Shown: positions 47,030-64,000, counted from the stretch's first letter. The stretch is 64,000 nucleotides of DNA from Gammaproteobacteria bacterium (GCA_965250225.1 CBDFNQ010000038.1:118851-182850); one strand, 5' to 3'. A program made the numbers and translations. Notes: generated by a model from the letters alone, not told the origin.

Positions 47030-47821
47030 ATGGAGACCAGGCCGATGGCCCGGCTATTTTCAGTTATATTTAGATACAATATTTTGCCAATAATTCTGTC
47101 CTGCTCATGTGTGTTTCCGGTGCAGGCTGCCACGGAGGGTCAAAAAGCGACTGGTGTTTCGGCGTCAGAAACGACTCAGAATAAAGCATCCGCAGGACGT
47201 CCATTCAACGCGAAAGCTGCGCTTACATACTACTTTGACAGTCGCGATTATAATACTCTTGCGATATTCACCAGCATAGATGAGCTTCCTTTGGGATTTA
47301 AGATTTGGGGGTTTACTGATCTCCACGGTGATCAGGGAAATGCATCTGACCGTTTCGATATCACACGTCATTTCATCGAATACAGACTGTCTCGCGAGAT
47401 CAGTCCGGAATGGCTGTTTGGTCTGCAAGGTGTCGGCATGATGGCCGAATACAATGATTTCAACGGACCTGACAATGATCTAGTTCGCATTGGTCCTTAT
47501 TATGATCATGCTATTCCACTTCCTTTTAGTGATCGCCAGGGAAAAATGCAATGGCGTTTATTCCCATATGAATCAGACGGAAGCGGCTGGCAGGCAAGTG
47601 TCAGCTTTTTTGTACCATTTTCAGATCGAGTATCGCTTACCGGGTTTGCGGATATCAATGTTATCGACGGTTCAGATCGTTGGGTCGTAGAACCGCAATT
47701 AAATTTCAAGGTCTCGCAACAGTTTTCACTTGTCATGGAACTACGTTATAACGGATTTGAAGAAGCGAACCCTGATCTCGACGGATTAGGACTCACTGCT
47801 GGATTGAAATTGTCATTCTGA
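47030..47821 (+). CDS. Hypothetical outer-membrane beta-barrel-like protein
   Basis: Signal peptide (…ILPIILSCSCVFPVQAATE), alternating amphipathic beta-strand pattern, C-terminal aromatic residue (…GLKLSF), typical of OMPs. Start may be the Met at 47045. Confidence 0.45.
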   Translation: METRPMARLFSVIFRYNILPIILSCSCVFPVQAATEGQKATGVSASETTQNKASAGRPFNAKAALTYYFDSRDYNTLAIFTSIDELPLGFKIWGFTDLHGDQGNASDRFDITRHFIEYRLSREISPEWLFGLQGVGMMAEYNDFNGPDNDLVRIGPYYDHAIPLPFSDRQGKMQWRLFPYESDGSGWQASVSFFVPFSDRVSLTGFADINVIDGSDRWVVEPQLNFKVSQQFSLVMELRYNGFEEANPDLDGLGLTAGLKLSF

Positions 47822-47841
47822 GACGTGAAACACAACTTTAA

Positions 47842-49506: not shown

Positions 49507-49854
49507 AAGATCTCGTAGAGTAATTTATACTTTTACATCCACACATTAGCGACAAAGCTTTAGTGTAAGAATCAATTTTTTCACCTATACAACATTTGAA
49601 ATCAGGTAGATAAATAGACAGAAACAAACCCAATAGGCTCAGTTAATTAAATAATAGTCTACATTCCGTTGATCGCTACTTGATTTAACACCGCTAACAG
49701 AAAAGTCCTGAAACTATGAGTTGTTTCAGTTGTAACTGTAATAGTCGGTAAGATCGGTGAATTGCCTTCCAACTTTTTGTTTTTTCTATTAACAACTAAT
49801 CTATTAATTAATGATTAAAATACAATGTCGAACTAAGACTTATTTTTTAGCGCT

Positions 49855-51195
49855 CTAGGAAAAACCCTTGTTTAATAATTGTATCGCATCCTGAATAGGC
49901 ATAGGTTTTGAAAAATAATATCCCTGGCCAAGCTCACATCTTTGCTTTCTTAACCATTCCATTTCTTCCCGCTTTTCAATACCTTCAGCTACAACAAGCA
50001 TATCCAGTTGTTTAGCCAAACCAATAATAGCGGAAACTATACGTTTCCCATTATCATTATCAAACATGTCATTAATAAAACTTCGATCGATTTTCAATAT
50101 ATCTAAAGGAAATCTGTTTAAGTAATTCAAACTTGAATAACCTGTACCAAAATCATCTATCGCAACAAGAACTCCAATTGTACGTAATCGACTTAATGCC
50201 TCCATTGCCACATGAGGGTTATTTAACAGAGTGTTTTCTGTTATTTCCAATTTTATACATTTTGGATCGATTGAAGAGCGCAAAATAATATTAATGAGTG
50301 ATTCTACGTTATCTTTATCATCCAGCTGGCGTGGTGATACATTGATGCTGATAAAAAGTGGATTTTTCAGATTTTTATCTTGAGCTTTCTTATCAAATAA
50401 TTGATATGCTAATAAAGAATGCTCTAATATCCATTCACCTAAAGGGATAATCAACCCGGACTCTTCAAGAAGCGGAATAAAGTCTTGAGGATTACGCATC
50501 TCAGGAATATCCTTAGGACCACGGACTAATGCTTCATAACCATTAACGATACCATTTGATAAATTCACTATGGGTTGATAATATAATTCAAATGATTGGT
50601 TCTCGACCGCAGCCGAAAGTTTCGACATAGAATTAATATAATTAACTGCCTCGTTTCGAGTCTGTTGAAAAACGATATCCCTTTTGCTTTCAAATTCCAG
50701 TTCCTCCACCTCTATATCATCAGAAAAATCTGTGTGCATTATTCTCAAACGACGAAATGCTGATTGTAATAATAATTGAGTTAAAGGATCTTCTCCTTTC
50801 ATCGCATCCTGAATCTGCCTGCGACTTATCGGGTGAACAGTTATTTCATGTATAGCAATTGCTGTTGCCGTACGAAGCTTTCCATCCATCACAGAGATTT
50901 CCCCAAAAATTTCTCCTGGGCCAAGAATTGCAATCACTTTCTTTTCATTATTAATGTCGCGTGATATTTCAACATAACCGTTATGTATAAGATATGCTTC
51001 GTTACCACGATCATTTTCTTCAAAGATTCTGGTGCCTGCTGAATAAATAACCTGGCCAACGCTGGGTTCGATTAGTTTTGCCAATTCCATTTGGGATATT
51101 TTGTGAATTGCCTGTGATCCAACAACTGGCATTTTAGCTAACCTTTGAATGTACTTGCTGCTGATCAAACCATTTAGTAACCTGGTTACGTCCAT
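49855..51195 (-). CDS. Cyclic-nucleotide-binding domain + EAL domain protein (cNMP-regulated c-di-GMP phosphodiesterase)
   Basis: cNMP-binding signature (GEIFGEISVMDGKLRTATAIA), EAL domain (YEALVRGP…ELYYQPIV…DDFGTGYSSLNYL…EGIEKREE). The ORF-track start overlaps the upstream GGDEF gene by 62 nt. An internal Met (MPVVGSQ, nt ~51135) abuts it instead. Confidence 0.85.
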   Translation of the reverse strand: MDVTRLLNGLISSKYIQRLAKMPVVGSQAIHKISQMELAKLIEPSVGQVIYSAGTRIFEENDRGNEAYLIHNGYVEISRDINNEKKVIAILGPGEIFGEISVMDGKLRTATAIAIHEITVHPISRRQIQDAMKGEDPLTQLLLQSAFRRLRIMHTDFSDDIEVEELEFESKRDIVFQQTRNEAVNYINSMSKLSAAVENQSFELYYQPIVNLSNGIVNGYEALVRGPKDIPEMRNPQDFIPLLEESGLIIPLGEWILEHSLLAYQLFDKKAQDKNLKNPLFISINVSPRQLDDKDNVESLINIILRSSIDPKCIKLEITENTLLNNPHVAMEALSRLRTIGVLVAIDDFGTGYSSLNYLNRFPLDILKIDRSFINDMFDNDNGKRIVSAIIGLAKQLDMLVVAEGIEKREEMEWLRKQRCELGQGYYFSKPMPIQDAIQLLNKGFS

Positions 51196-52654
51196 TGGTT
51201 TTAGAATGATATAGTGCCTGATCTGCCTGATCGATCATGGCAGCTGGGTCTTTTGCTCCCAAATTAATTGCTGAGACTCCCAAACTGGCAGTGATTGTTT
51301 TGCCGTTTGTAGGACTATCCTTAACTTCTGACCAATACAAAAATAATTCTCTGATCTTTTCTGCTATAACGGCTGCTCTATCAAGATTAGTTTGAGGTAA
51401 TACTATACAAAATTCTTCTCCACCGTAACGGCCAACAGCACCATTTTTACCACAATGCTCAATCAAGATATTTGCTATCCCCTTTATTACTTCATCACCA
51501 ACTGCATGCCCATAGGTGTCATTGATTTTTTTAAAGTGATCAATGTCTACCATAATACAGCTGACTATCAAATTTTCCTGTTTTGCCAGTATAAATTCAG
51601 TATTTAATTTTTCGAAAAACGCCCGACGATTCATGGTATTCGTAAGTGGATCGACACTCGCAAGCCGTCTGAGTTCATCATTTTGTCCACGGATTTTTAT
51701 CTCTGCTTTTTCAAGTTGGGAAACCGTTGCTTTTAATTCCCGATTAGCCCTTTCGACCTCACTGATATCATCAAAAGTGACCATCATGCCGCGCTGTTTC
51801 CCTTTGCCATCATATATTGCTGAAATATTAGTCGACAGGACACGCATGCCTTTTATTTTTGAGTGAAGCAACAATCTGACTCCCTGTAATTTACTGTCCT
51901 GTAATTTAGTGTGTTCCCACGGCAATGGAAAAGGGTTGTCCGCTTCCCGTTTAAATTCTCCCCAGTTCAACTTGGATAATGGTTGACCAATCAGTTCATC
52001 GGATGAGATTCCGGCCATATCAGAAAAAGCATTGTTTGCCAAAACTATGTACTGTTTAGCATCAAGTAACACCACGCCTTCAACCAACAAATCTAACGCA
52101 GCCTTAACACGACCAGGTACTACAGCGCTAGGATCTAGATAATGAAGTGCTCGACGAATAAAAAGTGTGTAAACCAGAAACCCCAACGTTAAAGTGACTA
52201 GAATTAATCTAGCAAGTGGAGACTCTAATAAAGTTGGTATCCAACCAATTTGCAGAGGGGTAAACTGGACTTCCATCCTGCCCCATTCCTGACCAGCTTC
52301 AAAAATCGGTACCAGAGCGTGGGTTGGTGTTGAAAACTTTATACCCTCTTTATTCCAGTTGCTTTCGTGACCACCTGCACTAGCAACCAATTGATCATCA
52401 GCCAGACGTAAACCGAGCGAAACGACTTCGGGATTGCGCTCTACTAATCTCATCATGCTGCTCTGAATAGCTTCATATTCTCCTGACTCAACAAGTGATG
52501 AAAATTGTATTGCAATTGATTCGCAGTATTCTTTGCGAGCCTCTAATTTTTGGCTGTGTTGTCCCGGGAATATTCCAAAAAAAGCATCAGAAACCAGCAA
52601 CACTGTCACCGTCAGTGCCGTTATTGATAAACCTATCCGAATCGATGGGCTCAT
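51134..52654 (-). CDS. Membrane-anchored sensor PAS-GGDEF diguanylate cyclase
   Basis: N-terminal TM, periplasmic/sensor region, second TM (LILVTLTLGFLVYTLFI), PAS-like region, GGDEF (RYGGEEFCIVL). Confidence 0.85.
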   Translation of the reverse strand: MSPSIRIGLSITALTVTVLLVSDAFFGIFPGQHSQKLEARKEYCESIAIQFSSLVESGEYEAIQSSMMRLVERNPEVVSLGLRLADDQLVASAGGHESNWNKEGIKFSTPTHALVPIFEAGQEWGRMEVQFTPLQIGWIPTLLESPLARLILVTLTLGFLVYTLFIRRALHYLDPSAVVPGRVKAALDLLVEGVVLLDAKQYIVLANNAFSDMAGISSDELIGQPLSKLNWGEFKREADNPFPLPWEHTKLQDSKLQGVRLLLHSKIKGMRVLSTNISAIYDGKGKQRGMMVTFDDISEVERANRELKATVSQLEKAEIKIRGQNDELRRLASVDPLTNTMNRRAFFEKLNTEFILAKQENLIVSCIMVDIDHFKKINDTYGHAVGDEVIKGIANILIEHCGKNGAVGRYGGEEFCIVLPQTNLDRAAVIAEKIRELFLYWSEVKDSPTNGKTITASLGVSAINLGAKDPAAMIDQADQALYHSKTNGRNQVTKWFDQQQVHSKVS

Positions 52655-52868: not shown

Positions 52869-55800
52869 CTAAGTATCTAGTATTTCTCCAACTTTTTTCT
52901 CAATCTGTTTTTCTTTCTTTTCTGATTGATCATCATCTTTGCTATCTGGATCACCATCTTCAGAATCATCATCTTTAGAAGCAGTAAGAACAGCTAAAGG
53001 GTCAATATGTCTCCATGTTGGTAATGATGAAAGTAATACCGAAAACAACCACTCAACCCGTAACAACCACGATAATGAACCAACAGACAGTGTTAAACCA
53101 ATTGTCTTGCCAATGTTTTCCGCAATTTCGATTTTCTTCTGCCCGGCATCATCAGATACATCCATCTCTTCTCTAAAATTCGAAAGTGCCTCTTCAAAAG
53201 TACGTTGAGTGTCTGACGTGTTTTCTAACAACCCACTGGACTCAAGTATATCTCTACCAGCATCTCGTATCTTTGCTAATTCTATAAATATGTGTTCTGT
53301 TACTGTTCTATCATTTTGTAAATTATCACGATCGAAACTGTTCGAATTTAGAACAATCTGTTCAACTCCTTTATCTTGATTCAAGATATTCTGAGAATCC
53401 AAAATTGTTTCTGGCATTTTTGTATTTGAATTTTCTATGTTCAAAGAATTAATAACTATCTTGAGGGCGGCACTGGTTTCTTCATTAATTGTTAATTCAG
53501 CACTTAATAATTCACTTTCTTGATTCTCATCAGTTATGATTTCCAGTGTCATAGCAGACTCCGGCTCATCAACAATGATTTCACTGACACTGACTGCTAC
53601 TGGTCCTACACCGATGGCACCATCAAACACTGTCAGCGAATAATTTGGCGCGGCCCCACCGAAATGCACAAACTGAATATCACCATTATTAATATCTTCC
53701 TGAGTAAAGGTACTTATCAAAACACCAGGATTACTCACAGCTTCAAACTGTCCACCAGTAATTCCCGAAATAGTAAAGGTCAAATCGGCATCTAAATTAT
53801 CGACATCCGATGTAAGGATATTGGTTGTACTTAATAAGGTGGTTTGTCCAGAGATATAAGCTAGCTGATTTGTGTTAAAAACCGGTGCATCGTTGACTGG
53901 ATTAACGGTGATACTCACTACTTGTGTGGTGGTGCCTCCAAGGTCGTCGGTGACAGTGACGGTAAAGTTATCGCTACCGAACCAGTTTGGATCCGTCGGA
54001 GTAAACGTCCACGCACCCGTGGCGGGGTTGATAGCAGCCGTGCCATTGGTAGCCGGAGTGGTGACAGTAAAATACGTATTATCCGTTAAACCCTCAGCGT
54101 CCGTAGCCGTCATCGTGCCGCCCACAGTATCGCCTTCGTTGCCGCTGTAACTGATGTCCCCGGTAATGACCGCGCTATCGTCGACCCCACTAACCGTCAC
54201 CGTCGTGTCGTAGTTGGTACTGGTGCCTCCATCGCCATCGGTGAGCACGTAGCGCACCGTACGATTACCTGTGGTCGGGTTGTCGGTGTCGGTGTTCTCA
54301 TACGTGATGTTTTGCGTGAGGGCGCTGACCGCCGTCGCATCGGCACTAGCGTTTAACGCGATCACCAAGTCCGTGCCACCGGTGCCGCCGGTGAATGTCC
54401 CAATCGTCACGCCTTGATACGTGACGTTACTTCCACTCACACCAACCTGCCCCGCCGCCGTGCCTTGGTTCCGGATGGCCAGCACATCCTCCGCACTGTC
54501 ACTGCCCGCTTGGAAGGAGACCGTAAGCGTGCCTGTGTCAAAGTCACTGCTGTCCACATCACTGACGACGGCATCCACCCCTTGCTCGATGACCACCGCC
54601 CCGTCGCCTTCGGTGTAGGCCAGGGCATCGCCGCCTAAGTTGGTGATAATCGGCAGGTCGTTTACCGTAGTCACGGTCAAAGTGACGGTCACGGTGTTAG
54701 AATCAATCGTTCCGTCGTTGGCTTTGTAGGTAAACGAGTCGACGCCGTTGAAGTCGGGGTTGGGGGTATAGGTAAACGTGCCATTGGCGTTGAGGACCAG
54801 CGTGCCGTTGCTGACGTCTGTTACTAGCACCGCGGTCAGCGGATCGGCATCGGCGTCAGTGTCGTTGAATAGTATGCCGGGATCGTTGTTCTCAAACCAG
54901 GCCACCGTGTCGTCGCCGCCTGACGCCGCCAACACATCTAGATCACCATCTCCATCCACATCCGCTATCGCGACAGAGATCGCCCCATCGGCCGTATTGG
55001 TGAGCACCTGCGCGGCGCCAAAGGTCCCCAACCCGTCGGTGTTCTCAAACCACGCCACCGTGTCGCCAAACACTGACGCCGCCACCACGTCCAGATCTCC
55101 ATCCCCATCCACATCCGCTGCCATGACAGAAGACGGCCCATTGGTCGTATTATTGATTACCTGCTCAGAGCCAAACGTCCCCAGCCCGTCGGTGTTCTCA
55201 TACCACACCACCGTGTCGCTCACGCGTATGGCTGCCACCACGTCCAGATCCCCATCTCCGTCCACATCCGCTGTCGTGACAGATCTCGCCCCATTGGCCG
55301 AATTGTCGATCAACTGCTCGGCACCAAACGTGCCCAGCCCGTCGGTGTTCTCATACCACGCCACCGTGTCGCCGATAAGTGACGCCACCAGGACGTCCTG
55401 ATCGCCATCCCCATCCACATCCGCTGCGGTAACATCGACTGCCCCATCGGCCGTATTGGTGAGCACCTGTTCGGTGCCAAACGTCCCCAGCCCGTCGGTG
55501 TTCTCATACCACGCCACCGTGTCGTCGTTTTTTGATGCCGCCAGCACGTCCAGATCCCCATCTCCGTCCACATCTGTTGCCACAATCGAGTAAGCCCCAT
55601 CGGCCGTATTCGTGATCACCTGTTCGGCACCAAACGTCCCCAGCCCGTCGGTGTTCTCATACCACGCCACCGTGTCGTCGTTTGTTGACGCCGCCAACAC
55701 ATCCAGATCCCCGTCTCCATCCACATCCGCTGCGGTCACAGCGAATGCCCCATCGGCCAGATTGGTGATCACCTGCTCGGCGCCAAACGTCCCCAGCCCG

Positions 55801-58634
55801 TCGATGTTCTCAAACCACGCCACCGTGTCGCCGTTATCTGACGCCGCCAACACATCCAAATCCCCATCACCGTCCACATCCGCTGCCACCACCGAGTGAG
55901 CCCCATTGGCCGTATTGGTAATCACCTGCTCTGTGAAGGGCGCAAGCAGCGTGGTGGTCAGTGAGCCATCTTCTAACAGATTGTAACTATCGGGGGCCGC
56001 AACTGGTGCATCATTCACCCCCGTGACTGTGATCGCCACTGCGTCCACATCCGTCACACTGTTGCCGTCCGTGCTCGTCATCGTCAGCGAGTCCGCCCCG
56101 GTGTAGTTGAGCGTGCCTTGATAGCTGAGGCTGGCCAAGGTCGCATTGATGTCGGCTTGCGTGCCCGACAAGGTCAGCGTGCTCGTGCCATTGCCCCCTG
56201 CACTGATACTGGCCGCCCCACTCACCGTCACCGTCACCGTCCCTTGCGTCACCCCCAACTGCACCGTGCTCAGGTTGCCGTCCACATCCATCACCGAGAG
56301 CCCACTGATGTTGAGCGCCGTGTCTTCGGCCACCACTTGCGCCCCCGGCACCGTGTTCACCGGCGCGTCGTTGGTTGGAGTGATGGTGAGAGTCACGGTC
56401 GTGGTATTGGAATCTGCTGTGCCATCATTCGTTTTATAGGTAAAGCTATCGGAAAAGTTCTCACTGCCATCATGCGTGTACGTGAAGCTGCCATCTGCGT
56501 TGAGGGTGAAGCTGCTGGCATGGCTGGGGCCGGACACTAAGATCGACGTGAGCGAATCATTCGCATCAACGTCGCTGTCGTTGGCTAAGACACTGAGCCC
56601 GTCGTTTTCATACCAGGCAATCGTGTCGTCGGACTCTGAGGCCGAGAGCACATCCAAATCACCATCACCATCCACATCGCCAGTCGCCACCACCACCGCG
56701 CCATCGGCACTGGTCGTAATCGTATGAGCCGTAAAGTTTTCACTGCCGTCGTTTTCATACCATGTGACCGCATCATCAAGGAATGCTGCGGAGAGGACAT
56801 CCACATCTCCATCCCCATCCATATCTCCGGTTGTGACAAAATAAGCGGCGGCGGCGCTGGTTGTGATCGTATGTTCCGTGAAGTTTTCACTCCCATCGTT
56901 CTCGTACCAGGCGATCGTGTCGTCAGAGTTTGAAGCGGACAAGACATCCAAGTCGCCGTCCCCATCCATGTCCACCGTGGTGACCGAACGAGCGCCATCC
57001 GCGCTGGTCGTGATGGTATGTTTGGTAAAGTTCTCACTGCCGTCATTCTCGTACCACGCAATCGTATCGTCATTGCTCGACGCCGAGAGGACATCCAGGT
57101 CACCATCCCCATCCACATCCGCGGTCGTTGCAGCACGGACGCTATCGGCAGTAGTCGTGATGGTATGTTTGGTAAAGTTCTCGCTCCCATCGTTCTCGTA
57201 CCAGGCGACGGTATCGTCATTGCTCGACGCCGAGAGGACATCCAGGTCTCCATCCCCATCCATATCCGCCGTTACGGCGGAATAGACGCCATCGGCGCTA
57301 GTTGTAATAATATGCTCGGTAAAGTTTTCACTGCCGTCGTTCTCATACCACGCAATGGTATCGTCGTTCGTAGAGGCCGCTAGCACATCCAGGTCGCCGT
57401 CGCCATCCATGTCCGCCGCCTCAACCCAGTGGGCCGCATCAGCGCTGGTCGTGATGGTATGCTTGGTAAAGTTTTCACTGCCATCGTTCTCGTACCACGC
57501 AATGGTGTCATCGGCATCCGAAGCCACCAGCACATCCAGATCCCCATCACCATCGACATCCGCACTTGAAACAAAACGGGCGCCATCGGCCACAGTAGTA
57601 ATCGTATGCTCGGTTAGGGTATTGCTGGTGTCGACCGTCAGTGTCCCGCCTTCAGCCACTGTATAACTGTCCGGGTTGGCCACAGGGGCAGCTAAGACTC
57701 CTTCAAATGCCTCTTGGGCTTGTTCATCCACGATCACCGAACTTTCAATCTCACCAACGATATATTCCAGATCCCAGTCACCACCAAGCTCAGCACTGCC
57801 GGTCAGGTCATCAGACGCCGCAACATCTGCCTGTGTCAATTGACTCAACGAATTGATCAGACTTTGTCCGTCTTCACTTGCTGCCAGATTACAACCGTAA
57901 ATCAGGAAGTCTCCATCCGTGGTAAAAGATTCAGACCAGGATTCGATCGTTTCAATGTTCTGACTTAGAATGTCAGAATCCAGCTGAGTGTTACCGATAT
58001 CAATGCTGCCGTCACTACCATGCGAAATCAGATGTACTGAATCAAGATTCTGATATGTTGATAACACTTCAGAGATTTGTTCAATGCCATTTCGTTCATT
58101 ATCGAGCACAATGACTTCGATATTACGATCTTCATCTCCCTGCGCCATAACGTCATTCAGCAATTGCTGATAGTTTTCAACATCGGTGTCGATGAAGACT
58201 AATTCATGTGGCTGAGTATCGGCTGTATCTGTCAGAGTACTGGTGTCGATTGTAGAGTTGATCGGCTCATCATTATCTGTCTCTTCGCCAACAAGGCTCT
58301 GTTGAACTGCTTCGAATTCCTCTATGATCACACCTTCGATGTTATCAAGTACAGAACTGATGTTGTCTATGTCGCTGTCGTTAGTTTGCTGATCAAAATT
58401 GAGAACGATAAATTCTGTTTCTATATAGGGTTGTTCAGAGACAACCAGAGGGGTATCTGAAGCAGTTGTTTCTTCGTTGGTATTATCAGATTCCGGAACC
58501 AGTTGAGCTTCCAGGGCAACGGGTTCGACCAGATCAGCGGCGAGATTAACATCCATTCCACCCAGTCCATCGGCAGAAAATAATATTCTGGGCTCTTCGG
58601 CTTCAAACGTCGCTTGAGATATTTTTTTTTTCAT
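52869..58634 (-). CDS. Giant surface/secreted protein: DUF4347 N-terminal domain, two seven-bladed FG-GAP beta-propellers, cadherin/VCBS-like domains, C-terminal hydrophobic segment and acidic tail. No N-terminal signal peptide.
   Basis: Start taken at the internal Met (MKKKISQ, nt 58634) rather than the ORF-track start at 58676. DUF4347 hallmarks (VFIDTDVENYQQLL…HLISHGSDGSIDIGNTQL…LIYGCNLAASEDGQSLINSLSQLTQADVAASDDLTGSAELGGDWDLEY). 7 + 7 FG-GAP repeats (ADVDGDGDLDVL.AS..DDT.AWYENDG…). TNDAPV/VNDAPV cadherin-like domain boundaries. C-terminus TIGLTLSVGSLSWLLRVEWLFSVLLSSL then D/E/K-rich tail. Confidence 0.85.
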   Translation of the reverse strand: MKKKISQATFEAEEPRILFSADGLGGMDVNLAADLVEPVALEAQLVPESDNTNEETTASDTPLVVSEQPYIETEFIVLNFDQQTNDSDIDNISSVLDNIEGVIIEEFEAVQQSLVGEETDNDEPINSTIDTSTLTDTADTQPHELVFIDTDVENYQQLLNDVMAQGDEDRNIEVIVLDNERNGIEQISEVLSTYQNLDSVHLISHGSDGSIDIGNTQLDSDILSQNIETIESWSESFTTDGDFLIYGCNLAASEDGQSLINSLSQLTQADVAASDDLTGSAELGGDWDLEYIVGEIESSVIVDEQAQEAFEGVLAAPVANPDSYTVAEGGTLTVDTSNTLTEHTITTVADGARFVSSADVDGDGDLDVLVASDADDTIAWYENDGSENFTKHTITTSADAAHWVEAADMDGDGDLDVLAASTNDDTIAWYENDGSENFTEHIITTSADGVYSAVTADMDGDGDLDVLSASSNDDTVAWYENDGSENFTKHTITTTADSVRAATTADVDGDGDLDVLSASSNDDTIAWYENDGSENFTKHTITTSADGARSVTTVDMDGDGDLDVLSASNSDDTIAWYENDGSENFTEHTITTSAAAAYFVTTGDMDGDGDVDVLSAAFLDDAVTWYENDGSENFTAHTITTSADGAVVVATGDVDGDGDLDVLSASESDDTIAWYENDGLSVLANDSDVDANDSLTSILVSGPSHASSFTLNADGSFTYTHDGSENFSDSFTYKTNDGTADSNTTTVTLTITPTNDAPVNTVPGAQVVAEDTALNISGLSVMDVDGNLSTVQLGVTQGTVTVTVSGAASISAGGNGTSTLTLSGTQADINATLASLSYQGTLNYTGADSLTMTSTDGNSVTDVDAVAITVTGVNDAPVAAPDSYNLLEDGSLTTTLLAPFTEQVITNTANGAHSVVAADVDGDGDLDVLAASDNGDTVAWFENIDGLGTFGAEQVITNLADGAFAVTAADVDGDGDLDVLAASTNDDTVAWYENTDGLGTFGAEQVITNTADGAYSIVATDVDGDGDLDVLAASKNDDTVAWYENTDGLGTFGTEQVLTNTADGAVDVTAADVDGDGDQDVLVASLIGDTVAWYENTDGLGTFGAEQLIDNSANGARSVTTADVDGDGDLDVVAAIRVSDTVVWYENTDGLGTFGSEQVINNTTNGPSSVMAADVDGDGDLDVVAASVFGDTVAWFENTDGLGTFGAAQVLTNTADGAISVAIADVDGDGDLDVLAASGGDDTVAWFENNDPGILFNDTDADADPLTAVLVTDVSNGTLVLNANGTFTYTPNPDFNGVDSFTYKANDGTIDSNTVTVTLTVTTVNDLPIITNLGGDALAYTEGDGAVVIEQGVDAVVSDVDSSDFDTGTLTVSFQAGSDSAEDVLAIRNQGTAAGQVGVSGSNVTYQGVTIGTFTGGTGGTDLVIALNASADATAVSALTQNITYENTDTDNPTTGNRTVRYVLTDGDGGTSTNYDTTVTVSGVDDSAVITGDISYSGNEGDTVGGTMTATDAEGLTDNTYFTVTTPATNGTAAINPATGAWTFTPTDPNWFGSDNFTVTVTDDLGGTTTQVVSITVNPVNDAPVFNTNQLAYISGQTTLLSTTNILTSDVDNLDADLTFTISGITGGQFEAVSNPGVLISTFTQEDINNGDIQFVHFGGAAPNYSLTVFDGAIGVGPVAVSVSEIIVDEPESAMTLEIITDENQESELLSAELTINEETSAALKIVINSLNIENSNTKMPETILDSQNILNQDKGVEQIVLNSNSFDRDNLQNDRTVTEHIFIELAKIRDAGRDILESSGLLENTSDTQRTFEEALSNFREEMDVSDDAGQKKIEIAENIGKTIGLTLSVGSLSWLLRVEWLFSVLLSSLPTWRHIDPLAVLTASKDDDSEDGDPDSKDDDQSEKKEKQIEKKVGEILDT
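54806..57596. repeat. Intragenic tandem DNA repeats (~240-250 bp units) encoding the two sets of FG-GAP blades
   Basis: Highly similar nucleotide units repeated 7x at ~56606-57596 and 7x at ~54806-55886. This generates many spurious antisense and alternate-frame ORFs in the six-frame track (e.g. 54778-55401, 56585-57259). Confidence 0.8.
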
Positions 58635-58753
58635 ATGACATGCTGGCGATATATTTAGTCGGATCTGGCTGACCAACCTTATATATCGTCAGAAAATATA
58701 AAAACTTGAATGTTCTCGAAAGAGATGAAGCCCTGTTCCCTATTCTCTTTTAA

Positions 58754-60751
58754 CTATTCAGCAGTTCCTGAAAATGACAACATATCGCCGAGCCGCTCTT
58801 CCTGTTTTTCAAGGGCGCGCCGTGCCTTGCGATGACGATGCTCCAGCATGGATTGGGAGCGATTCATCAACCAATTACCAAGTCCAGTGGGAATTTCACC
58901 TTTACCGAATGAAAATACAACGATTAAATATCGAAGCCATTTGGAGTAATGCTCATAGGGTATTTCATCGTCCAGTGCGGTAAAAATCTGATAACTACCC
59001 GGGTCTCCCTGACGAGAGCTGCGACCAATCAACTGACGATCAATCCGGTTAGCTTCATTACGTTCAGTGATGATCACGTGCAGACCGCCATTCGCACTGG
59101 CCTGATCGCTCAACTTGATATCGGTACCTCGGCCAGCCATGTTAGTAGCGACCGTAACAGCCCCTACCTCTCCTGCAGCGGCAATGATCTCAGCTTCGAG
59201 CGCATCTTGTCTGGCGTTTAATACTTTCGCCTCAATCCCCAGCTTGTTCAGCATTACCCCAAACCGTTCGGACATCTCCACCGAGCGAGTCCCTACCAAA
59301 ACTGGCCTGCCCATCTTGACCAGTTTTTCTACACTCATAAGGATTGCCCGATTTTTATGTTCAGAGTTTATAAAAGTCCGTGGGCGCGAAACTGTTCGTT
59401 TACAGCGTTTATGTGTCGGAATTCGAACAACGGGTAAGCGATAAACAGAGGCAAGTTCTTTTTCTATCTTTAGTGCAGTGCCTGTCATACCACCAAGTTT
59501 TAGGTAACGACGAAAGAAACGTTGATAACTGATTCGTGCCAGGGTTTCCTTGTTCCCAGAGATCTCACACCCTTCTTTTACTTCTACCATTTGATGCAGA
59601 CCACGTTCCCAGGATCGATCCGCCATTAAACGACCGGTATTATCATCAATGATCTGTACTTTATTATCTTTAACCAGATAATGACGATCGCGGACGAAGA
59701 GATAAAGTGCCATCAAGGCCTGTTCAACAAGCTCTTCACGCCAACGACTGGCTCTCCACATTGGATCCAGATCCTCAACCATCTTTTCCAGAGATACCAA
59801 ACCTTGATCGGTAAACTGGAGTCTACGTTCACGTTGATGAATGATGAAATCAACATCCAGATGGAGATCGCCAGCAAGTGTCAAAGCCTGATGATAAATT
59901 TCCGGGTCTTCACCGCTTTCTATAGGATTTGATAATATCAAAGGTGTCCTTGCTTCATCGATCAAGACACTGTCTGCCTCATCTACGATTGCGTAGCACA
60001 GACCTCTTAGCATTAGTTTCGATGTGGCATTATTATCATCATACAATCTCTGTAATTTCATATGAGTTGCACTGGCTGTGTTACCTCGGGCAACACGATC
60101 ACGTAAATAATCAAATGCAATTTGTTTGTTGGTGCAATAGGTCACATCACAGTTGTATGCTTGTGTACGTTCATCGGTGTCCATACCTTCAATAACTGAA
60201 CCAACACTGAGTCCTAATCTTTCATAAACCGGACGCATGATCTCTGCATCACGTCCGGCCAGATAATCATTCGTTGTAATAACATGAACAGGAATACCCG
60301 TCATCGCTGCGGCACAGGCAGGTAATGTTGCAGTCAGAGTTTTACCTTCTCCGGTTTGCATTTCTGCGAGCAGGCCATTGTACAATACCCATCCACCTTT
60401 TATCTGAGAGGGAAAGTGTCTAAGCCCTAGAGTTCGATCAGCGACCTCTCGTACTGCTGCAAATGCCTGAATTGCCAAATCTTCACCTGCATCGCTGCGG
60501 GCAAGTCTGAGTTTTAATCCTGTTATCGCCAGGTCAAGAACATCATCTGGCATTCTTTTTAATGATTCGCCGGCTTTTTCGATGCGTTCGACGACCTTAT
60601 CCAGATTCGATGATGAGAGTACGCGGTTGGCTTCTAACCGTAACCATGATGACTCAACCGCGTTTTCGAACCAACCTGAATTTTCTGCTAGCCATTCCGG
60701 ATAACTTCCTAACGCAAGTCCTGGACGTGATTCTAATTGTAAACCAATCAT
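58754..60751 (-). CDS. SecA-like ATPase: SecA motor core (NBD1-PPXD-NBD2) with a novel ~40-aa N-terminal extension and lacking helical-wing, IRA1 and C-terminal zinc-binding domains
   Basis: Collinear with the SecA N-terminus (AFAAVREVADRTLGLRHFPSQIKGGWVL vs SecA [28 protein letters not shown]). Walker A MQTGEGKTLTATLP, HVITTNDYLAGRDAE, motif AGRGTDIKL, LIGRSSRQGDPGSYQ (SecA: RGRSGRQGDPGSS). Only 665 aa versus ~900 for SecA. Ends shortly after the first scaffold helix. Confidence 0.8.
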   Translation of the reverse strand: MIGLQLESRPGLALGSYPEWLAENSGWFENAVESSWLRLEANRVLSSSNLDKVVERIEKAGESLKRMPDDVLDLAITGLKLRLARSDAGEDLAIQAFAAVREVADRTLGLRHFPSQIKGGWVLYNGLLAEMQTGEGKTLTATLPACAAAMTGIPVHVITTNDYLAGRDAEIMRPVYERLGLSVGSVIEGMDTDERTQAYNCDVTYCTNKQIAFDYLRDRVARGNTASATHMKLQRLYDDNNATSKLMLRGLCYAIVDEADSVLIDEARTPLILSNPIESGEDPEIYHQALTLAGDLHLDVDFIIHQRERRLQFTDQGLVSLEKMVEDLDPMWRASRWREELVEQALMALYLFVRDRHYLVKDNKVQIIDDNTGRLMADRSWERGLHQMVEVKEGCEISGNKETLARISYQRFFRRYLKLGGMTGTALKIEKELASVYRLPVVRIPTHKRCKRTVSRPRTFINSEHKNRAILMSVEKLVKMGRPVLVGTRSVEMSERFGVMLNKLGIEAKVLNARQDALEAEIIAAAGEVGAVTVATNMAGRGTDIKLSDQASANGGLHVIITERNEANRIDRQLIGRSSRQGDPGSYQIFTALDDEIPYEHYSKWLRYLIVVFSFGKGEIPTGLGNWLMNRSQSMLEHRHRKARRALEKQEERLGDMLSFSGTAE

Positions 60752-60757
60752 AAAAAC

Positions 60758-62902
60758 CTACACACCAAAGCGCCCAAGGAACAATTGCCTGACAATTCGG
60801 TAACATTGCATTGCCAGAGGTTCTTCCCCATGATTAAAACGTACATACACACGTAAACCTATCGGTGCGTTTGTTAGTTTGGTATCCAACGCAACTTCAT
60901 AATGGAATACTGATTCCAAAGTTTTGATGCCCTGTTCATCATTTGGATCGACTGTAATAGATCCTCCCCCAGCCCTCCCCAGTACTTTACTTGGCAATTT
61001 ATCCTGAGCTGAGGGAACCGCAGAGATAACGGTTGCGCGATAAGTCTTGTTGATATTGTTAGCCAATATTACCGATACATCCTTGTAACCTTCTCTGATA
61101 CGACCAATACGGTTTTGTGGAATTGCTATTTTAACTTTCATAGCATTCTCTCCAACCACATACCCAAGGTGGTCACCTTTTCGAATGTATTGGTTTTTTA
61201 GATCACCAAATTCCAATGGTACAAATCGACCATTGGCTGGGCTAATAACTACCAGATTTTTGACTCGTTCCTGAATCTGACGAAATTCAGCACGTTTCGC
61301 CAACAAGCTTTCTTCATACAGATTGGCTTCGAGCAAATCGGTGTTCTTTGCAATTCGATAACGGACTGATAATTCATTAAGCTCAGCTTTAACTATTTCA
61401 AGCTTATGTCGATCAATAGGAGTATCCAGTTCAATCAATGATTGGCCAATGCTTACATTACTAAATGGTTGAATCAATACGTCATTGACAAAACCTTCAC
61501 CAGTCGCCTTTATCAAAGCTTCATCCGGTGGAAATAATACCCCCTCACTACGTGTAGTTGATGGTACTGGAACAACACAAAATACATAAAACAACGAAGT
61601 AAGAAAAACTAAAGTAATCGTGATACTAAAAAATCTTTTTTGTTGCACGCGAGGATCAAGCAAAACGAATGAAATCGCTTTCCATATAGGCAACAGGATT
61701 TGTAACACCACAGCCCACAACGCGAAAATAATGCCAATGACAAAAAATTTTCCCGCAACAAACCAGATTATCGTTATGGTTATAAACCAACGATACAACG
61801 TGGAAGTAATTCCATAGACAACAAACCAGAATCGCTCACCCGCGCGTCCTACTGGTGATATGGCATCTTTTAACAGGAACAGATATCGCTGTATCAGATA
61901 AGTGAGATATCGCGAAGAGCGTGTCGCCAGACTAGGGACTTCTATCAAATCTTCGAGAATGTAATAGGCATCAAATTTCAGTAATGGATTACCATTAAAA
62001 ATAAGTGTTGATACGCCTGCGATCAATATAACGTTAAAGGCAATCATACGGACAATGCTATCTTCGACAGATAGCCAGAGGAACAATGCAAGACTCGCCA
62101 GGAATACTTCTACCATCATGCCTGCAGCACTGACGATCATGCGTTGATACTTGTGTCGACATACCGAGGAGGAGCTGGCGTCTACGTATGGCACAGGGAT
62201 AAATACCAGAAAACTGATACCCATTTCATGCACCTCTCCACCCCATTTTTTGGTAGTAATAGCATGTCCAAATTCATGAAATACTTTGACGAATGGATAT
62301 ATGAAGCCCAGTATGATCAGATTGTCGACTTCCAGAACATTTGTTACAGCATAGTCTTTTAAACTTGACCACTCAGGTGCCGCTGCAAATAATGCTAACG
62401 TAACTACCAGTAACCAGATAATAAATCCAAATGGGTTGAATAATTTCCCCAATACCGGAGTAATAATTTTTAACAGTGCATCTGGATCGAACAGAGGGAT
62501 CTTTAGAGACATAGGACTGCGTAATTTCTGCATCCATTTCTTCCGTCGTTGTTCTTCACCACGGCGGAATAATTCAAGACAATCGGGTGTCATTCTCCCC
62601 TGCAGAGAATCAGCCTTGTGTAGACGACTTAAAATACCGATGATCTCATCCTGAGTTGGAGCGCTATCTTCCATGACGACTAATAAAACTTCCCATATTT
62701 CATGCAACGTCCGTTCACCATTCATACGTCCTACCAATTCATAGGCAGCTTCATTAAATCGATAGAATTTTCCGTTACTGTGATCCTGTAATATATAGGT
62801 TGTCTGATTACCATAAGGTTGTCGGTGAATTTCGACATGATTACGTAACTGCGGTTTTAAATTTGCGACCCGATACCAGGAAAAGCTGTACATACTGGAC
62901 AT
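60758..62902 (-). CDS. Fusion protein: N-terminal cytoplasmic domain + peptidase M50 (site-2 protease-like, HExxH) polytopic membrane domain + HlyD-like membrane-fusion (periplasmic adaptor) domain
   Basis: Zinc motif FHEFGHAITTKKWGG within multi-TM region (6+ hydrophobic helices, aa ~150-440). C-terminal ~270 aa with coiled-coil (LEIVKAELNELSVRYRIAKNTDLLEANLYEESLLAKRAEFRQIQ) and beta-barrel/lipoyl-like segments typical of HlyD/MFP proteins. 6-nt spacing to the SecA-like gene. Confidence 0.75.
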   Translation of the reverse strand: MSSMYSFSWYRVANLKPQLRNHVEIHRQPYGNQTTYILQDHSNGKFYRFNEAAYELVGRMNGERTLHEIWEVLLVVMEDSAPTQDEIIGILSRLHKADSLQGRMTPDCLELFRRGEEQRRKKWMQKLRSPMSLKIPLFDPDALLKIITPVLGKLFNPFGFIIWLLVVTLALFAAAPEWSSLKDYAVTNVLEVDNLIILGFIYPFVKVFHEFGHAITTKKWGGEVHEMGISFLVFIPVPYVDASSSSVCRHKYQRMIVSAAGMMVEVFLASLALFLWLSVEDSIVRMIAFNVILIAGVSTLIFNGNPLLKFDAYYILEDLIEVPSLATRSSRYLTYLIQRYLFLLKDAISPVGRAGERFWFVVYGITSTLYRWFITITIIWFVAGKFFVIGIIFALWAVVLQILLPIWKAISFVLLDPRVQQKRFFSITITLVFLTSLFYVFCVVPVPSTTRSEGVLFPPDEALIKATGEGFVNDVLIQPFSNVSIGQSLIELDTPIDRHKLEIVKAELNELSVRYRIAKNTDLLEANLYEESLLAKRAEFRQIQERVKNLVVISPANGRFVPLEFGDLKNQYIRKGDHLGYVVGENAMKVKIAIPQNRIGRIREGYKDVSVILANNINKTYRATVISAVPSAQDKLPSKVLGRAGGGSITVDPNDEQGIKTLESVFHYEVALDTKLTNAPIGLRVYVRFNHGEEPLAMQCYRIVRQLFLGRFGV

Positions 62903-62906
62903 AACT

Positions 62907-64000
62907 TTACCCCAACCAGATCCAGATCTGCAGTCTCGACCAATAAATCAATTCGTGGAACCAGATCCATAATAATTTTCTCTGTTCAACGTCAACCTTG
63001 GCGATCCCTTCCATTCCTGGGCGTAACAATGGGTTGTCGATAGCAATACTTGCTTCGACATGAAAAACATTTTTCCCATCCAGAGCCTCTGACACCGGTA
63101 ACAGCCGCTCCACTTTCAAGGCCAGGGTTTGATTCGGTAAACCAGTCAAGGCTAATTCACCTTCTGAACCGATATGAACTTCTCCAATATCCTGCTCATC
63201 GATCAAAATTCTTACCCGATAGGAATCCACCGGGGCAATTTGAAATATTTCCTGGCCGCTTTTCAAAGGCGAACCCAATAATTGACTTAAATCCCCTGAT
63301 ACAACCACACCGTCAAATGGAGCTGTGATCTGTGCACGTTGCAATTGTTCATCAAGAAGCTGCATCTTGACCTTGGTTTGTTTGATCTGTGCATTGGCTA
63401 TAGCAGCTTTGGATCGATCGTTCGGGTTAAGCAATCCTGCTCGATGCTGCATGATGAATTGCTCATACTCACTTTCAAGTCTGAATCGTTCAAGCTTTAT
63501 GTCTTTTGTATCCAACATGGCCAACACATTCCCTTTTTCCACCCAGTCACCCGCTCGAACAGATGAACTGTAAATATAGCCTTCTTGCGGGGAGGTAATG
63601 ATTTGCTTAAATTTCGCTTCAAGAATTGCTGGCGCTCGCAGTCGATAAACAGAGCTCTCTGTTGACAGATAAAACAATCCGGAAATCAATCCAACACATA
63701 AGATTTTTGCCAGCAAATATTTTGCACCAAGCAGCTGGGCAATGACATTCCAGATGTTATCCAGTATCTTAATAAAAAATGCTCGATCATGCTGATACTT
63801 CAATTCAAGAATTGGACCGAGCAATGCACCAACACTTTCACATAGTTCCTGCTTGTCGTGATTAAAACCACTGTCCTTTTGCATTTCAAAAGTCATTGCT
63901 CCAATAGGTTGTCCCGCACTATATAACGGGGTCGTAAAAACTAACTTTCCATTATTACGTTGAGATAGAACCTCCTGAGCAAAAGATACATGCGGAACAG
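62907..64000 (-). CDS. GAF-domain + HlyD-family membrane-fusion protein. Partial: 5' end beyond window.
   Basis: The reading frame stays open upstream of the ORF-track Met to the window edge (…VPHVSFAQEVLSQRNNGKLVFTTPLYSAGQPIGAMTFEMQKD…, GAF C-terminal signature). Then TM (ILCVGLISGLFYL), HlyD coiled-coil and barrel regions (…ITAPFDGVVVSGDL…). 4-nt spacing to the M50-HlyD gene. Confidence 0.7.
   Translation of the reverse strand, partial: VPHVSFAQEVLSQRNNGKLVFTTPLYSAGQPIGAMTFEMQKDSGFNHDKQELCESVGALLGPILELKYQHDRAFFIKILDNIWNVIAQLLGAKYLLAKILCVGLISGLFYLSTESSVYRLRAPAILEAKFKQIITSPQEGYIYSSSVRAGDWVEKGNVLAMLDTKDIKLERFRLESEYEQFIMQHRAGLLNPNDRSKAAIANAQIKQTKVKMQLLDEQLQRAQITAPFDGVVVSGDLSQLLGSPLKSGQEIFQIAPVDSYRVRILIDEQDIGEVHIGSEGELALTGLPNQTLALKVERLLPVSEALDGKNVFHVEASIAIDNPLLRPGMEGIAKVDVEQRKLLWIWFHELIYWSRLQIWIWLG

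Follow-up and report, generated by a model that had tools for sequence, protein, structure and literature searches.

A widespread cassette encoding a GAF-MFP adaptor, an RRE–S2P(M50)–MFP fusion and a SecA-like ATPase, located upstream of a giant DUF4347/FG-GAP protein in the 64,000-nucleotide stretch of gammaproteobacterial DNA analyzed here (the window), probably represents a new route to export and trim giant proteins that carry an N-terminal LEPR-XLL leader. Judging from comparison with related loci, we consider it rather likely that the cassette builds a periplasmic duct of MFPs and TolC resembling that of the type 1 secretion system (T1SS), with a leader-binding S2P and a SecA-like motor as the inner-membrane engine. 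Chance falls far short of explaining the layout, as 76 of 82 related loci in several phyla share it, and the export/processing interpretation proposed in the preliminary description of this DNA is supported. We found no description of the cassette in the literature searched, a coverage that excluded most subscription journals.

ORF calling placed four genes on the minus strand, separated by gaps of 4, 6 and 77 nt from the GAF-MFP gene to the giant gene (the last counted from TTG 58676). The first three are closely packed, and strand and spacing are exactly those reported before. The genes, their parts and two neighboring genes are as follows (all on the minus strand).

62907..>64000, minus: GAF-MFP gene, 3' part; 363 codons in the window, continuing past the window end
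60758..62902, minus: RRE–S2P(M50)–MFP fusion gene, 714 aa
62603..62851, minus: RRE of the fusion, a cytoplasmic PqqD-like winged helix, about aa 18-100
61577..62482, minus: site-2-protease membrane core of the fusion, about aa 141-442
62264-62278, minus: HEFGH zinc motif of the S2P core
61970-61996, minus: NGNPLLKFD third-ligand motif of the S2P core
60761..61570, minus: periplasmic MFP domain at the C-terminus of the fusion protein (aa 445-714), made up of lipoyl, alpha-hairpin and beta-barrel parts
58754..60751, minus: SecA-like ATPase gene, 665 aa
60335-60361, minus: Walker A of the SecA-like ATPase
52869..58634, minus: giant DUF4347/FG-GAP/cadherin-like gene from its likely ATG start, 1921 aa; Pfam domains with NCBIfam tandem-95 and VCBS repeats
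58572..58634, minus: N-terminal leader of the giant, with a basic stretch ahead of the LEPR-XLL motif (MKKKISQATFEAEEPRILFSA)
57693..58202, minus: DUF4347 domain of the giant (PF14252, 194.7 bits)
53013..53102, minus: hydrophobic segment in the C-terminal part of the giant, ahead of an acidic, lysine-rich tail of 47 aa; read from the sequence
51134-52654, minus: PAS-GGDEF gene, directly 3' of the giant (NCBIfam)
49855-51195, minus: cNMP-binding-EAL gene, 3' of the giant (NCBIfam)

Pfam profiles bear out the adaptor, M50::HlyD, SecA-like and DUF4347 assignments made earlier. The mechanical ORF of the giant starts at TTG 58676 and has 1935 aa. The true start is most likely ATG 58634 (M15, giving MKKKISQATFEAEEPRILFSAD), which we prefer because the closest orthologue has the same start, and the gap between the ATPase and giant genes is therefore 119 nt; the 77-bp gap reported before holds from the TTG.

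The giant was described as a 1.9-kaa DUF4347/FG-GAP/cadherin-like protein, and Pfam agrees, finding 15 FG-GAP_3 repeats and Big_9/cadherin domains besides DUF4347. DUF4347 also occurs elsewhere without the leader and without the cassette. The claim that the giant has no export signal holds for Sec, Tat and RTX signals, as its hydropathy profile contains no hydrophobic N-terminal segment and Pfam finds no HemolysinCabind/RTX repeats in it, but fails with respect to the N-terminal LEPR-XLL tag: residues 10-28 of the protein starting at ATG 58634 match NCBIfam NF012209 (LEPR-XLL) with 24.5 bits versus 17. In the leader consensus, (F/L)E-x-LEPR-x-LL-SAD comes after a basic stretch. In the related loci, the motif lies at the N-terminus of all neighboring giants with a readable N-terminus, and its co-variation with the cassette holds for 20 of 20 neighboring giants, one of them counted by its PGAP name; a 10,603-aa neighbor is called ‘LEPR-XLL domain-containing protein’ by PGAP. 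A six-frame scan of all loci found the motif 16 times, 14 of them at the N-terminus of the cassette-side giant ORF, and no small ORF with the motif in any frame of any locus. In one neighboring giant the motif is masked by a miscalled start. At the other end of the window's giant, the last 200 aa gave no match in family and homologue searches, and the hydrophobic segment there may, with some uncertainty, be a membrane anchor.

The M50::HlyD fusion is real and not an assembly artefact: it is shared at full length by more than 5,287 relatives with lengths near 715 aa, in which HExxH and NPLLxFD are invariant. It scores 28.0 bits against Peptidase_M50 (cut-off 27.2) and 25.8 against HlyD_3 (cut-off 22.2) in Pfam, with a weak PqqD match, and its best PDB profile match is HlyD of the HlyB/D complex (8dck_C). 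HlyD_3 and HlyD_D23 are found in both MFP-bearing proteins and fold matches support their assignment to the HlyD family, while the HExxH and NxxPxxxxD zinc site, the polytopic core and the S2P fold assign the membrane part to M50. The cytoplasmic N-domain noticed before is present and can now be identified as a leader-peptide recognition element (RRE), whose fold corresponds to that of lasso-peptide B1 proteins in structures determined together with leader peptides. The fusion thus has the N-terminal leader-recognition (PqqD-like) domain of RiPP peptidases. It aligns to nearly the full extent of the NCBIfam model NF041824 (daptide biosynthesis intramembrane metalloprotease; 1e-40), under the cut-off (137 vs 300), and scores 27 against NF058609 (YydH/LiaK family epipeptide maturation metalloprotease; cut-off 225); orthologues and the fusions of a SecA-less variant (described below) likewise stay under both equivalog cut-offs. 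Because the N-domain is an RRE, a protease that recognizes the leader of its substrate appears much better supported than an S2P acting as a channel. Of the two functions suggested previously for the S2P, we therefore favor the protease, in a leader-reading role, and the channel gained no support; S2P cores are not known to conduct polypeptides.

Domain matches and alignment agree that the ATPase is a SecA homologue cut down to its DEAD motor, as proposed. Pfam detects SecA_DEAD (340 bits), SecA_PP_bind (90.6) and P-loop_SecA (161) and nothing further. The protein shares NBD1-PPXD-NBD2 and all ATPase motifs with SecA and SecA2 but stops early in the scaffold helix, at residue 665; HWD, the two-helix finger (IRA1), the C-terminal linker/tail and the zinc site are missing. 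It aligns over ~550 residues to residues 23-575 of the 786 in C. difficile SecA2 (6sxh; E 1e-123) with intact ATPase motifs. The NCBIfam SecA models cover only about positions 16-603 of 789, the best score being 586.6 against a cut-off of 814, and the protein falls under every NCBIfam SecA/SecA2 cut-off. Its N-terminal segment differs from that of SecA/SecA2 and is about 25 aa longer. The gene is no pseudogene fragment, since 54 full-length orthologues (median 667 aa) have the ATPase motifs intact, conserved at 90% or more; the orthologues also conserve a C-terminal L-S/A-F-S/A-G tail. Unlike in SecA2 systems, no SecY2 or accessory Sec genes accompany the cassette and the putative substrate lacks a hydrophobic signal peptide.

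The frame of the GAF-MFP gene has no in-frame stop through base 64000. Its window part is 58% identical (tblastn) to residues 230-590 of a 590-aa orthologue (L001), and because the aligned part begins at orthologue residue 230, the window holds no more of the GAF domain than its tail. This part matches HlyD_3 (1.2e-18) and HlyD_D23 (9.8e-13) in Pfam, and GAF scores above the Pfam cut-off of 22.4 bits in full-length orthologues (28.0, 40.7, 50.1 and 26.8 bits). The HlyD half of the adaptor described before is thus seen directly in the window, and the GAF half, a tail there, through the orthologues. A single hydrophobic (KD) segment in the window part is a predicted TM segment, followed by the periplasmic HlyD-type adaptor, with the GAF region predicted to be cytoplasmic.

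The survey of gene neighborhoods favors the earlier reading. At least 535 genome loci contain the cassette; the GAF-MFP gene immediately precedes the fusion in related loci, the SecA-like gene immediately follows it in the 76 of 82 loci mentioned above, and a small third MFP accompanies the cassette in most relatives. The adjacency of a giant ORF extends across genomes, with 30 of the 36 loci that have full 10-kb flanks showing it, and 5-6 of the 36 having no giant within 10 kb. The absence of an ABC or RND partner holds as far as the relatives show: in related loci no such pump adjoins the cassette (the window itself ends inside the MFP gene of this genome), the annotated loci contain no ABC transporter, and ABC matches appear in only two of the 82, both distal. 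The postulated TolC-like exit is encoded in the cluster of some relatives (Methylosinus and 6 of 82 loci). DUF3467 lies between the giant and GAF-MFP genes in 29 of 82 loci and also adjoins a classical pair of ABC and AprE-type MFP. By tblastn, TolC, the small MFP, DUF3467 and an ABC ATPase are absent from the 64-kb window. In a sister variant (Azospirillum, Kosakonia, E. coli plasmids and also Citrobacter plasmids), TolC, MFPs and the S2P::MFP fusion stand beside LEPR/DUF4347 giants without an ATPase gene, and TolC was in the cluster in every locus of this variant inspected. Therefore, either some form of the system can do without the motor, or another source supplies the energy; the SecA-like motor proposed as energizer is retained in most loci but is not universal. 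The PAS-GGDEF and cNMP-binding-EAL genes downstream of the giant may serve the locus as c-di-GMP regulators, their membership being suggested by position, and both proteins score far under the NCBIfam LapD cut-off. EAL and HDOD genes adjoin the cassette in the closest orthologous locus too, where they lie with SecG and TIM genes upstream of GAF-MFP.

Comparative genomics suggests export, cleavage and gating by GAF, and gene neighborhood together with domain identity points to the likely substrate, transport direction and energy coupling. In the mechanism we propose, the N-terminal LEPR-XLL leader observed on the giant would be bound by the cytoplasmic RRE of the fusion, as RiPP RREs bind theirs, and the S2P core, with its fully conserved zinc site, would cleave the leader or free the protein. 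The SecA-like ATPase, which retains the DEAD motor and the preprotein clamp but has lost the SecY-engaging HWD and the two-helix finger, would unfold and push the ~1,900-aa chain. A periplasmic duct to a TolC-type channel, presumably encoded elsewhere in this genome, would be built from the fusion's MFP and the GAF-MFP, with the small third MFP added in most relatives. GAF and the neighboring GGDEF/EAL genes may tie export or release to a nucleotide second messenger, and the FG-GAP/cadherin-like giant would finally lie on the cell surface, forming an adhesin-like filament. Whether this amounts to a new Gram-negative secretion type, with LEPR-XLL as the address, an RRE-S2P-MFP reader, a SecY-independent SecA-derived motor, an MFP/TolC duct and leader removal by the S2P, we regard as an even call.

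The cassette could instead serve retention and release. RTX/HemolysinCabind repeats lie near the C-terminus of many neighboring giants (PMC10868602), and this would fit a classical T1SS encoded elsewhere too. The giant would then be exported C-terminus first by this ABC-type T1SS, and the cassette would hold its LEPR-XLL end at the inner membrane through the RRE, with the S2P freeing or recycling it under second-messenger control and the SecA-like ATPase extracting or feeding the N-terminal segment, a functional analogue of the LapG/LapD control of adhesins of the LapA type. The GGDEF, EAL and HDOD genes flanking the cassette here and in its closest relative, the GAF sensor on an MFP, the SecA-less variant, for which a dedicated motor is unneeded, and DUF3467 beside a classical T1SS pair all agree with such a function. 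However, the giant in the window lacks RTX repeats and shows no family match in its C-terminal 200 aa, two to three MFPs and an in-cluster TolC are parts of a duct that a release protease would find superfluous, the intact preprotein clamp of the SecA motor suggests translocation, and 80 of 82 loci have no linked ABC exporter; we consider this function unlikely.

Maturation and export of a small RiPP or bacteriocin, with giants nearby only through shared islands, is suggested by the RRE and S2P module, which most resembles leader peptidases of the daptide and YydH/LiaK kinds, by the frequency of HlyD-type adaptors in bacteriocin export, and by the few full-flank loci that lack a giant. We judge it very improbable: the leader motif is almost confined to giant N-termini, where it co-varies with the cassette, and no small ORF carries it, modifying enzymes (radical SAM etc.) are absent from the annotated loci, and the NCBIfam score is far under the equivalog cut-off. 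Hardly any weight can be given to a tripartite efflux pump or to signaling by regulated intramembrane proteolysis, both unconnected with protein export, in which the SecA-like protein would be a generic helicase-like ATPase. The PGAP names ‘efflux RND transporter periplasmic adaptor subunit’ and ‘DEAD/DEAH box helicase’ point that way, and S2P enzymes are classically signaling proteases, but there is no RND, ABC or MFS pump and no anti-sigma/sigma pair conserved in the loci, the ATPase has the preprotein cross-linking domain specific to SecA (90.6 bits), the N-domain of the fusion is by fold match of the peptide-leader binder type, and the tight link to LEPR-tagged giants is left without explanation.

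As a putative exporter, the cassette resembles T1SSs (HlyBD-TolC; LapBCE/LapA) in its HlyD-type adaptors, the in-cluster TolC-family gene of relatives, the giant cadherin-like/VCBS/RTX substrates next door, the c-di-GMP genes nearby and the shared DUF3467. It differs in having no ABC transporter, with an RRE-S2P protease::MFP and a SecA-like ATPase at the inner membrane in its place, two to three distinct MFPs instead of one, and an N-terminal leader as the candidate signal, whereas the T1SS signal is C-terminal and uncleaved. In contrast to the LapA/LapG/LapD system, LapG or LapD homologues are absent, with no LapG-like gene in the annotated loci. MacAB-TolC and EmrAB-TolC differ in that the inner-membrane partner of the cassette is neither ABC nor MFS and its cargo is presumably a polypeptide. 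The daptide and YydH/LiaK RRE-S2P enzymes, whose family names annotate them as enzymes of RiPP peptide maturation, remove a leader peptide. The fusion matches nearly all 379 positions of the daptide model including the N-terminal domain, and keeps HExxH, but it is fused to a periplasmic MFP and its neighbor is a protein of 1,900 to >10,000 aa, with no short precursor and no modifying enzymes. Compared with the site-2 proteases MjS2P, RseP and SpoIVFB, it has no PDZ or CBS domain, carries an extra N-terminal RRE and C-terminal MFP, and lies outside a sigma/anti-sigma context. Giants of Omnitrophota and Actinobacteria embed SecA DEAD and preprotein-binding domains, which their authors propose to aid the giant's own export (bioRxiv 10.1101/2023.11.21.568195). 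That SecA-like motor likewise is without scaffold and wing domains and tied to giant proteins; there the domains lie inside the giant, beside T2SS-like genes (bioRxiv 10.1101/2023.11.21.568195), whereas here they form a separate 665-aa protein in an MFP/S2P cassette.

If the proposed mechanism is true, the SecA motor is separable from SecY, and tripartite exporters have, besides ABC, RND and MFS, a fourth kind of inner-membrane engine, the first to combine Sec, S2P and RiPP parts. To our knowledge, how bacterial proteins thousands to tens of thousands of residues long cross two membranes is understood for ABC-driven type 1 systems only, and the cassette would be a second, mechanistically different answer. 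The so far unexplained LEPR-XLL motif would gain a role, as would the large protein family with ‘truncated SecA’ and ‘PqqD family / peptidase M50 / HlyD’ members, which annotation pipelines name inconsistently. RiPP-type leader recognition would reach from short peptides to giant proteins, and a short N-terminal tag might be used for surface display of very large passengers. The hypothesis is open to direct test in cultured hosts of the cassette. The host range spans Gamma-, Beta-, Alpha- and Deltaproteobacteria, Nitrospira/Nitrospina, Rokubacteria, Methylomirabilia, Myxococcota and Acidobacteria, including nitrifiers (Nitrospina, Nitrospira), rhizobia and marine Gammaproteobacteria, together with thousands of metagenomic protein clusters.

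The four minus-strand ORFs were recovered with the same coordinates and spacing as in the preliminary description (intergenic gaps of 4, 6 and 77 nt). Three of them form the cassette: a GAF-domain periplasmic adaptor of the HlyD type (GAF-MFP), a fusion of a leader-peptide recognition element (RRE), a site-2 protease (S2P) and a further MFP, and a shortened SecA-like ATPase. The fourth encodes the giant surface-type protein. The features, taken from ORF calls and, for the last two, from reading the sequence, are as follows.

62907 to >64000, minus strand: GAF-MFP ORF, running past the window end
60758 to 62902, minus strand: RRE-S2P-MFP fusion ORF, 714 aa
58754 to 60751, minus strand: SecA-like ORF, 665 aa
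52869 to 58676, minus strand: giant ORF, 1935 aa from a TTG
53013 to 53102, minus strand: C-terminal hydrophobic segment of the giant, 30 aa, IGLTLSVGSLSWLLRVEWLFSVLLSSLPTW
52869 to 53012, minus strand: end tail of the giant, 47 aa, with abundant acidic residues and lysine

The GAF-MFP frame stays open, free of stop codons, as far as base 64000, so the gene extends past the window. For the giant gene, the ATG at 58634 is most likely the start, judging from the predicted N-terminus, which begins MKKKISQATFEAEEPRILFSAD and agrees with the orthologue's MKNNLSEATFETVEPRILYSAD. A terminator scan of the gap between the SecA-like and giant genes returned no terminator-like site, and the terminator and promoter counts from the SecA-like gene to the giant equaled those in shuffled sequence and are uninformative. 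The remaining window is ordinary chromosome with the nuo operon, cheA and several GGDEF/EAL genes, and genes for TolC, an ABC ATPase, the small MFP and DUF3467 were undetectable by tblastn across the 64 kb. Directly past the giant gene, 44478-52654 is dense in c-di-GMP and signaling genes (PAS-GGDEF, cNMP-binding-EAL, histidine kinase, REC-GGDEF-EAL), and a HAMP-GGDEF-EAL gene lies more distantly at 24498-27302. The closest orthologous locus, L001, carries EAL and HDOD genes on the opposite flank of the cassette.

The GAF-MFP matches Pfam HlyD_3 and HlyD_D23, and its portion inside the window aligns with residues 230-590 of a 590-aa orthologue. The window therefore holds only the tail of the GAF domain, but the label given in the preliminary description is correct because in full-length orthologues the GAF domain passes the Pfam cut-off and lies N-terminal to a single TM segment. 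In the fusion, Peptidase_M50 and HlyD_3 exceed their Pfam cut-offs and the PqqD match is weak; the N-terminal part, previously taken for a cytoplasmic domain, is now assigned as the leader-recognition element. The fusion covers nearly the whole NCBIfam model 'daptide biosynthesis intramembrane metalloprotease' with a score far below its cut-off, and matches the YydH/LiaK model, also far under the cut-off. The exact entry of the window's fusion was absent from the assembly index and homologues were taken instead. Across 79 sequences of the family, HExxH and NPLLxFD are invariant, and the AlphaFold2 model built with 79 homologues in the alignment has a mean pLDDT of 85.5. The S2P part was undetected by sequence search against the PDB and required a fold search. 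The SecA-like protein matches Pfam SecA_DEAD, SecA_PP_bind and P-loop_SecA and no other domain. It aligns with SecA2 and SecA structures to about residue 575 of 786 and terminates early in the scaffold helix, with the Walker A, DEAD, GMTGTA and arginine-finger motifs all intact. Its orthologues share an extreme C-terminal L-S/A-F-S/A-G tail in the alignment (window region 58754-58800), and a moderately conserved YPEW motif is found in their new N-terminal segment. Both the tail and YPEW are candidate docking elements for membrane partners.

To place the cassette among other genomes, we collected related loci. The protein collection holds more than 5,287 fusion relatives of about 715 aa, and species-representative genomes hold at least 535 loci with a fusion relative, spread over Gamma-, Beta-, Alpha- and Deltaproteobacteria, Nitrospira/Nitrospina, Rokubacteria, Methylomirabilia, Myxococcota and Acidobacteria. 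Cultured carriers of the complete cassette include Neptuniibacter caesariensis MED92, Marinobacterium mangrovicola DSM 27697, Vibrio sp. UCD-FRSSP16_30, Pseudomonas sp. MMS21 TM103, Labrenzia alba, Bradyrhizobium sp. DOA9 and Nitrospina gracilis 3/211. A GAF-MFP gene stands before the fusion in related loci, and the SecA-like gene lies directly 3' of it in 76 of 82 loci by tblastn, the exceptions being mostly contig ends. Among the 54 SecA-like orthologues of full length, the median is 667 aa and the ATPase motifs are conserved. From this recurrence and the conserved lengths and motifs, we conclude that the fusion is a genuine single polypeptide rather than an assembly artefact and that the SecA-like gene is no pseudogene. 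Downstream of the SecA-like gene there is usually a third, small MFP (about 275 aa), which the window's own clade lacks. On a Pontibrevibacter plasmid annotated by PGAP, the order is a LEPR-XLL protein (10,603 aa), DUF3467, GAF-MFP, fusion, SecA-like protein and small MFP; a Methylosinus plasmid repeats this arrangement and adds a TolC gene after it, and in an Alisedimentitalea plasmid an 8,148-aa calcium-binding protein precedes the cassette. In 29/82 loci a DUF3467 gene (~100 aa) separates the giant from the GAF-MFP; it is tied to protein secretion because it also adjoins a classical ABC exporter with an AprE-type MFP. In Alisedimentitalea (L090:958-1755) and Methylosinus (L089:1204-1901), a gene upstream of the giant and divergent from it encodes a SapC-family protein or another MFP; for Chlorobium chlorochromatii, giant proteins with SapC and TolC as neighbours have been mentioned (bioRxiv 10.64898/2026.03.19.712371).

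The giant of the window comprises DUF4347, 15 FG-GAP_3 repeats and Big_9/cadherin/tandem-95 modules (Pfam, NCBIfam). The preliminary description had found no Sec, Tat or RTX/T1SS signal in it. This stands in so far as the N-terminus has no hydrophobic segment and Pfam and NCBIfam searches found no RTX repeats, but the N-terminus does carry a leader, scoring 24.5 bits against NCBIfam NF012209 'LEPR-XLL domain' (cut-off 17). The leader consensus comprises a basic stretch and then (F/L)E-x-LEPR-x-LL-SAD. Among the 36 loci with full 10-kb flanks, to which this count was confined, a giant (an ORF of 1,500 aa or longer, with 1,000 aa or longer accepted where the locus edge cuts it) adjoins the cassette in 30, and one more locus has a fragmented giant. 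The leader opens 18 neighbouring giants and the window's own, and with one more identified by its PGAP name this makes 20/20; in one of these giants the motif was hidden immediately 5' of a miscalled start. A six-frame scan covering the window and every locus found 16 occurrences of the motif, 14 of them at the opening of a giant ORF beside the cassette. DUF4347 was rejected as a marker of the system, since Phaeobacter pPGA1_262 and Gloeothece have it without the cassette; the DUF4347 protein of pPGA1_262 has no leader. The feature that tracks the cassette is the LEPR-XLL leader, not DUF4347. In the literature searched, LEPR-XLL is mentioned only in passing, for example in a ~8,000-aa Vibrio protein (PMC10868602). 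Five loci with full 10-kb flanks (L008, L024, L030, L063, L069) have the cassette and neither a giant ORF nearby nor an ORF with the leader motif; their substrate may be encoded elsewhere in the genome.

At the other end of the window's giant, the hydrophobic segment and tail may form a C-terminal anchor. The C-terminal module has no family match and no detectable homologue, and the idea of a conserved anchor or sorting domain was rejected on these grounds. Many giants upstream of the cassette have a short (I/V)-D/N-W motif in their final 10-60 residues (LIDWDAL, IIDWDKG, RIDWTNF, LIDWSAR), including those of L002/L003, L025, L033, L039, L059, L064, L076 and L082; the window's giant has none. 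It is a candidate for a second conserved signal at a terminus. In the window's giant, the repeat region (54001-58000) has a G+C content of 55-59% vs ~40% in the rest of the window and encodes a sequence abundant in Thr, Asp, Ala, Gly and Val; the G+C difference may reflect either the composition of the repeats or foreign origin.

A sister variant, with fusions about 24% identical, occurs in Azospirillum, Kosakonia, Citrobacter and E. coli plasmids (for example L087, Kosakonia NZ_CP107078; L088, Azospirillum NZ_CP059452; L095, E. coli pECTOK-001_2 NZ_AP018397). Its order is the giant with LEPR motif and DUF4347, TolC, a small MFP, an MFP of ~440 aa and the S2P::MFP fusion, and SecA-like and GAF genes are absent from these loci. 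Because the sister variant has no SecA-like gene, the motor lies outside the deepest conserved link, which joins a LEPR-tagged giant to the RRE-S2P-MFP fusion, additional MFPs and TolC. Within one branch the SecA-like motor is a gain or a loss. At ≥99% identity the sister module is found in 23/5,426 complete E. coli genomes, mostly plasmid-borne, which offers a tractable model.

We favour, as somewhat the more probable account, that a leader-reading RRE-S2P protein, a SecA-like motor and an MFP/TolC duct export the giant. The cytoplasmic RRE of the fusion would bind the LEPR-XLL leader, and the S2P site would cut the leader off or free the protein. The SecA-like motor, having lost the SecY-engaging parts and kept the preprotein clamp, would unfold and drive the chain through a duct that the MFP domains would build as far as TolC, and the GAF domain and nearby GGDEF/EAL genes might tune the process. 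This account builds on features established directly, namely domain identities, conserved catalytic and ATPase sites, gene order, the leader motif and the TolC gene inside the cluster in relatives. The export/processing interpretation in the preliminary description is backed by the comparative tests it had proposed (HMM architectures and a neighbourhood survey), while nothing was found in favour of its S2P channel. That the cassette is instead a retention/release device, with the giants leaving through a classical T1SS encoded elsewhere, seems to us unlikely: the RTX repeats of many related giants and the c-di-GMP gene context would suit it, but the window's giant is free of RTX, and the multiple MFPs plus TolC and the SecA clamp argue against it. 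An efflux or signaling module explains the cassette poorly, as does a small-peptide (RiPP) exporter, whose substrate we rejected because no small ORF in the window or in any locus showed the leader motif in the six-frame scan.

Leader-directed export of the giant by such a cassette resembles the adaptor and TolC half of a T1SS, but the ABC transporter that defines a T1SS is missing and the window's giant has no C-terminal RTX signal. The cassette shares a SecA homologue with the SecA/SecA2 pathways, whereas this protein falls under every family cut-off and lacks the HWD and two-helix finger, and the putative substrate has no signal peptide. Like the daptide and YydH/LiaK leader peptidases, the fusion combines an RRE with a true site-2 protease of the M50 family, but it scores far below their cut-offs and there is neither a short precursor nor any modifying enzyme. 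Truncated SecA domains also sit inside giant Omnitrophota and actinobacterial proteins, where they were proposed to aid export of the giant itself (bioRxiv 10.1101/2023.11.21.568195). A 2021 Chem. Rev. review of tripartite systems and T1SS gives ABC, RND and MFS as the only engines and mentions neither SecA nor S2P (PMC8277102). We found no description of the cassette in the full-text literature searched, which omits most subscription journals, so an earlier description cannot be fully excluded. We rate the cassette as a probable tripartite MFP/TolC exporter with an inner-membrane engine and signal without precedent, and give an even chance that it merits the name of a new secretion system type.

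The three cassette proteins have no dedicated NCBIfam models and their PGAP names are inconsistent ('PqqD family peptide modification chaperone', 'peptidase M50', 'HlyD family...', 'DEAD/DEAH box helicase', 'preprotein translocase subunit SecA', 'prepilin peptidase'). Public records mislabel cassette parts, as with the Methylosinus SecA-like gene at L085:22219-24135 (NZ_AP022333), misnamed 'prepilin peptidase' with a Pfam SecA_DEAD match of 1e-103. Late start calls also hide the leader: in Alisedimentitalea L090 (NZ_CP123586, ~183224-183300), the late-called start of the 8,148-aa protein drops the LEPR-XLL leader, VVEQLEPRLLLAAD.
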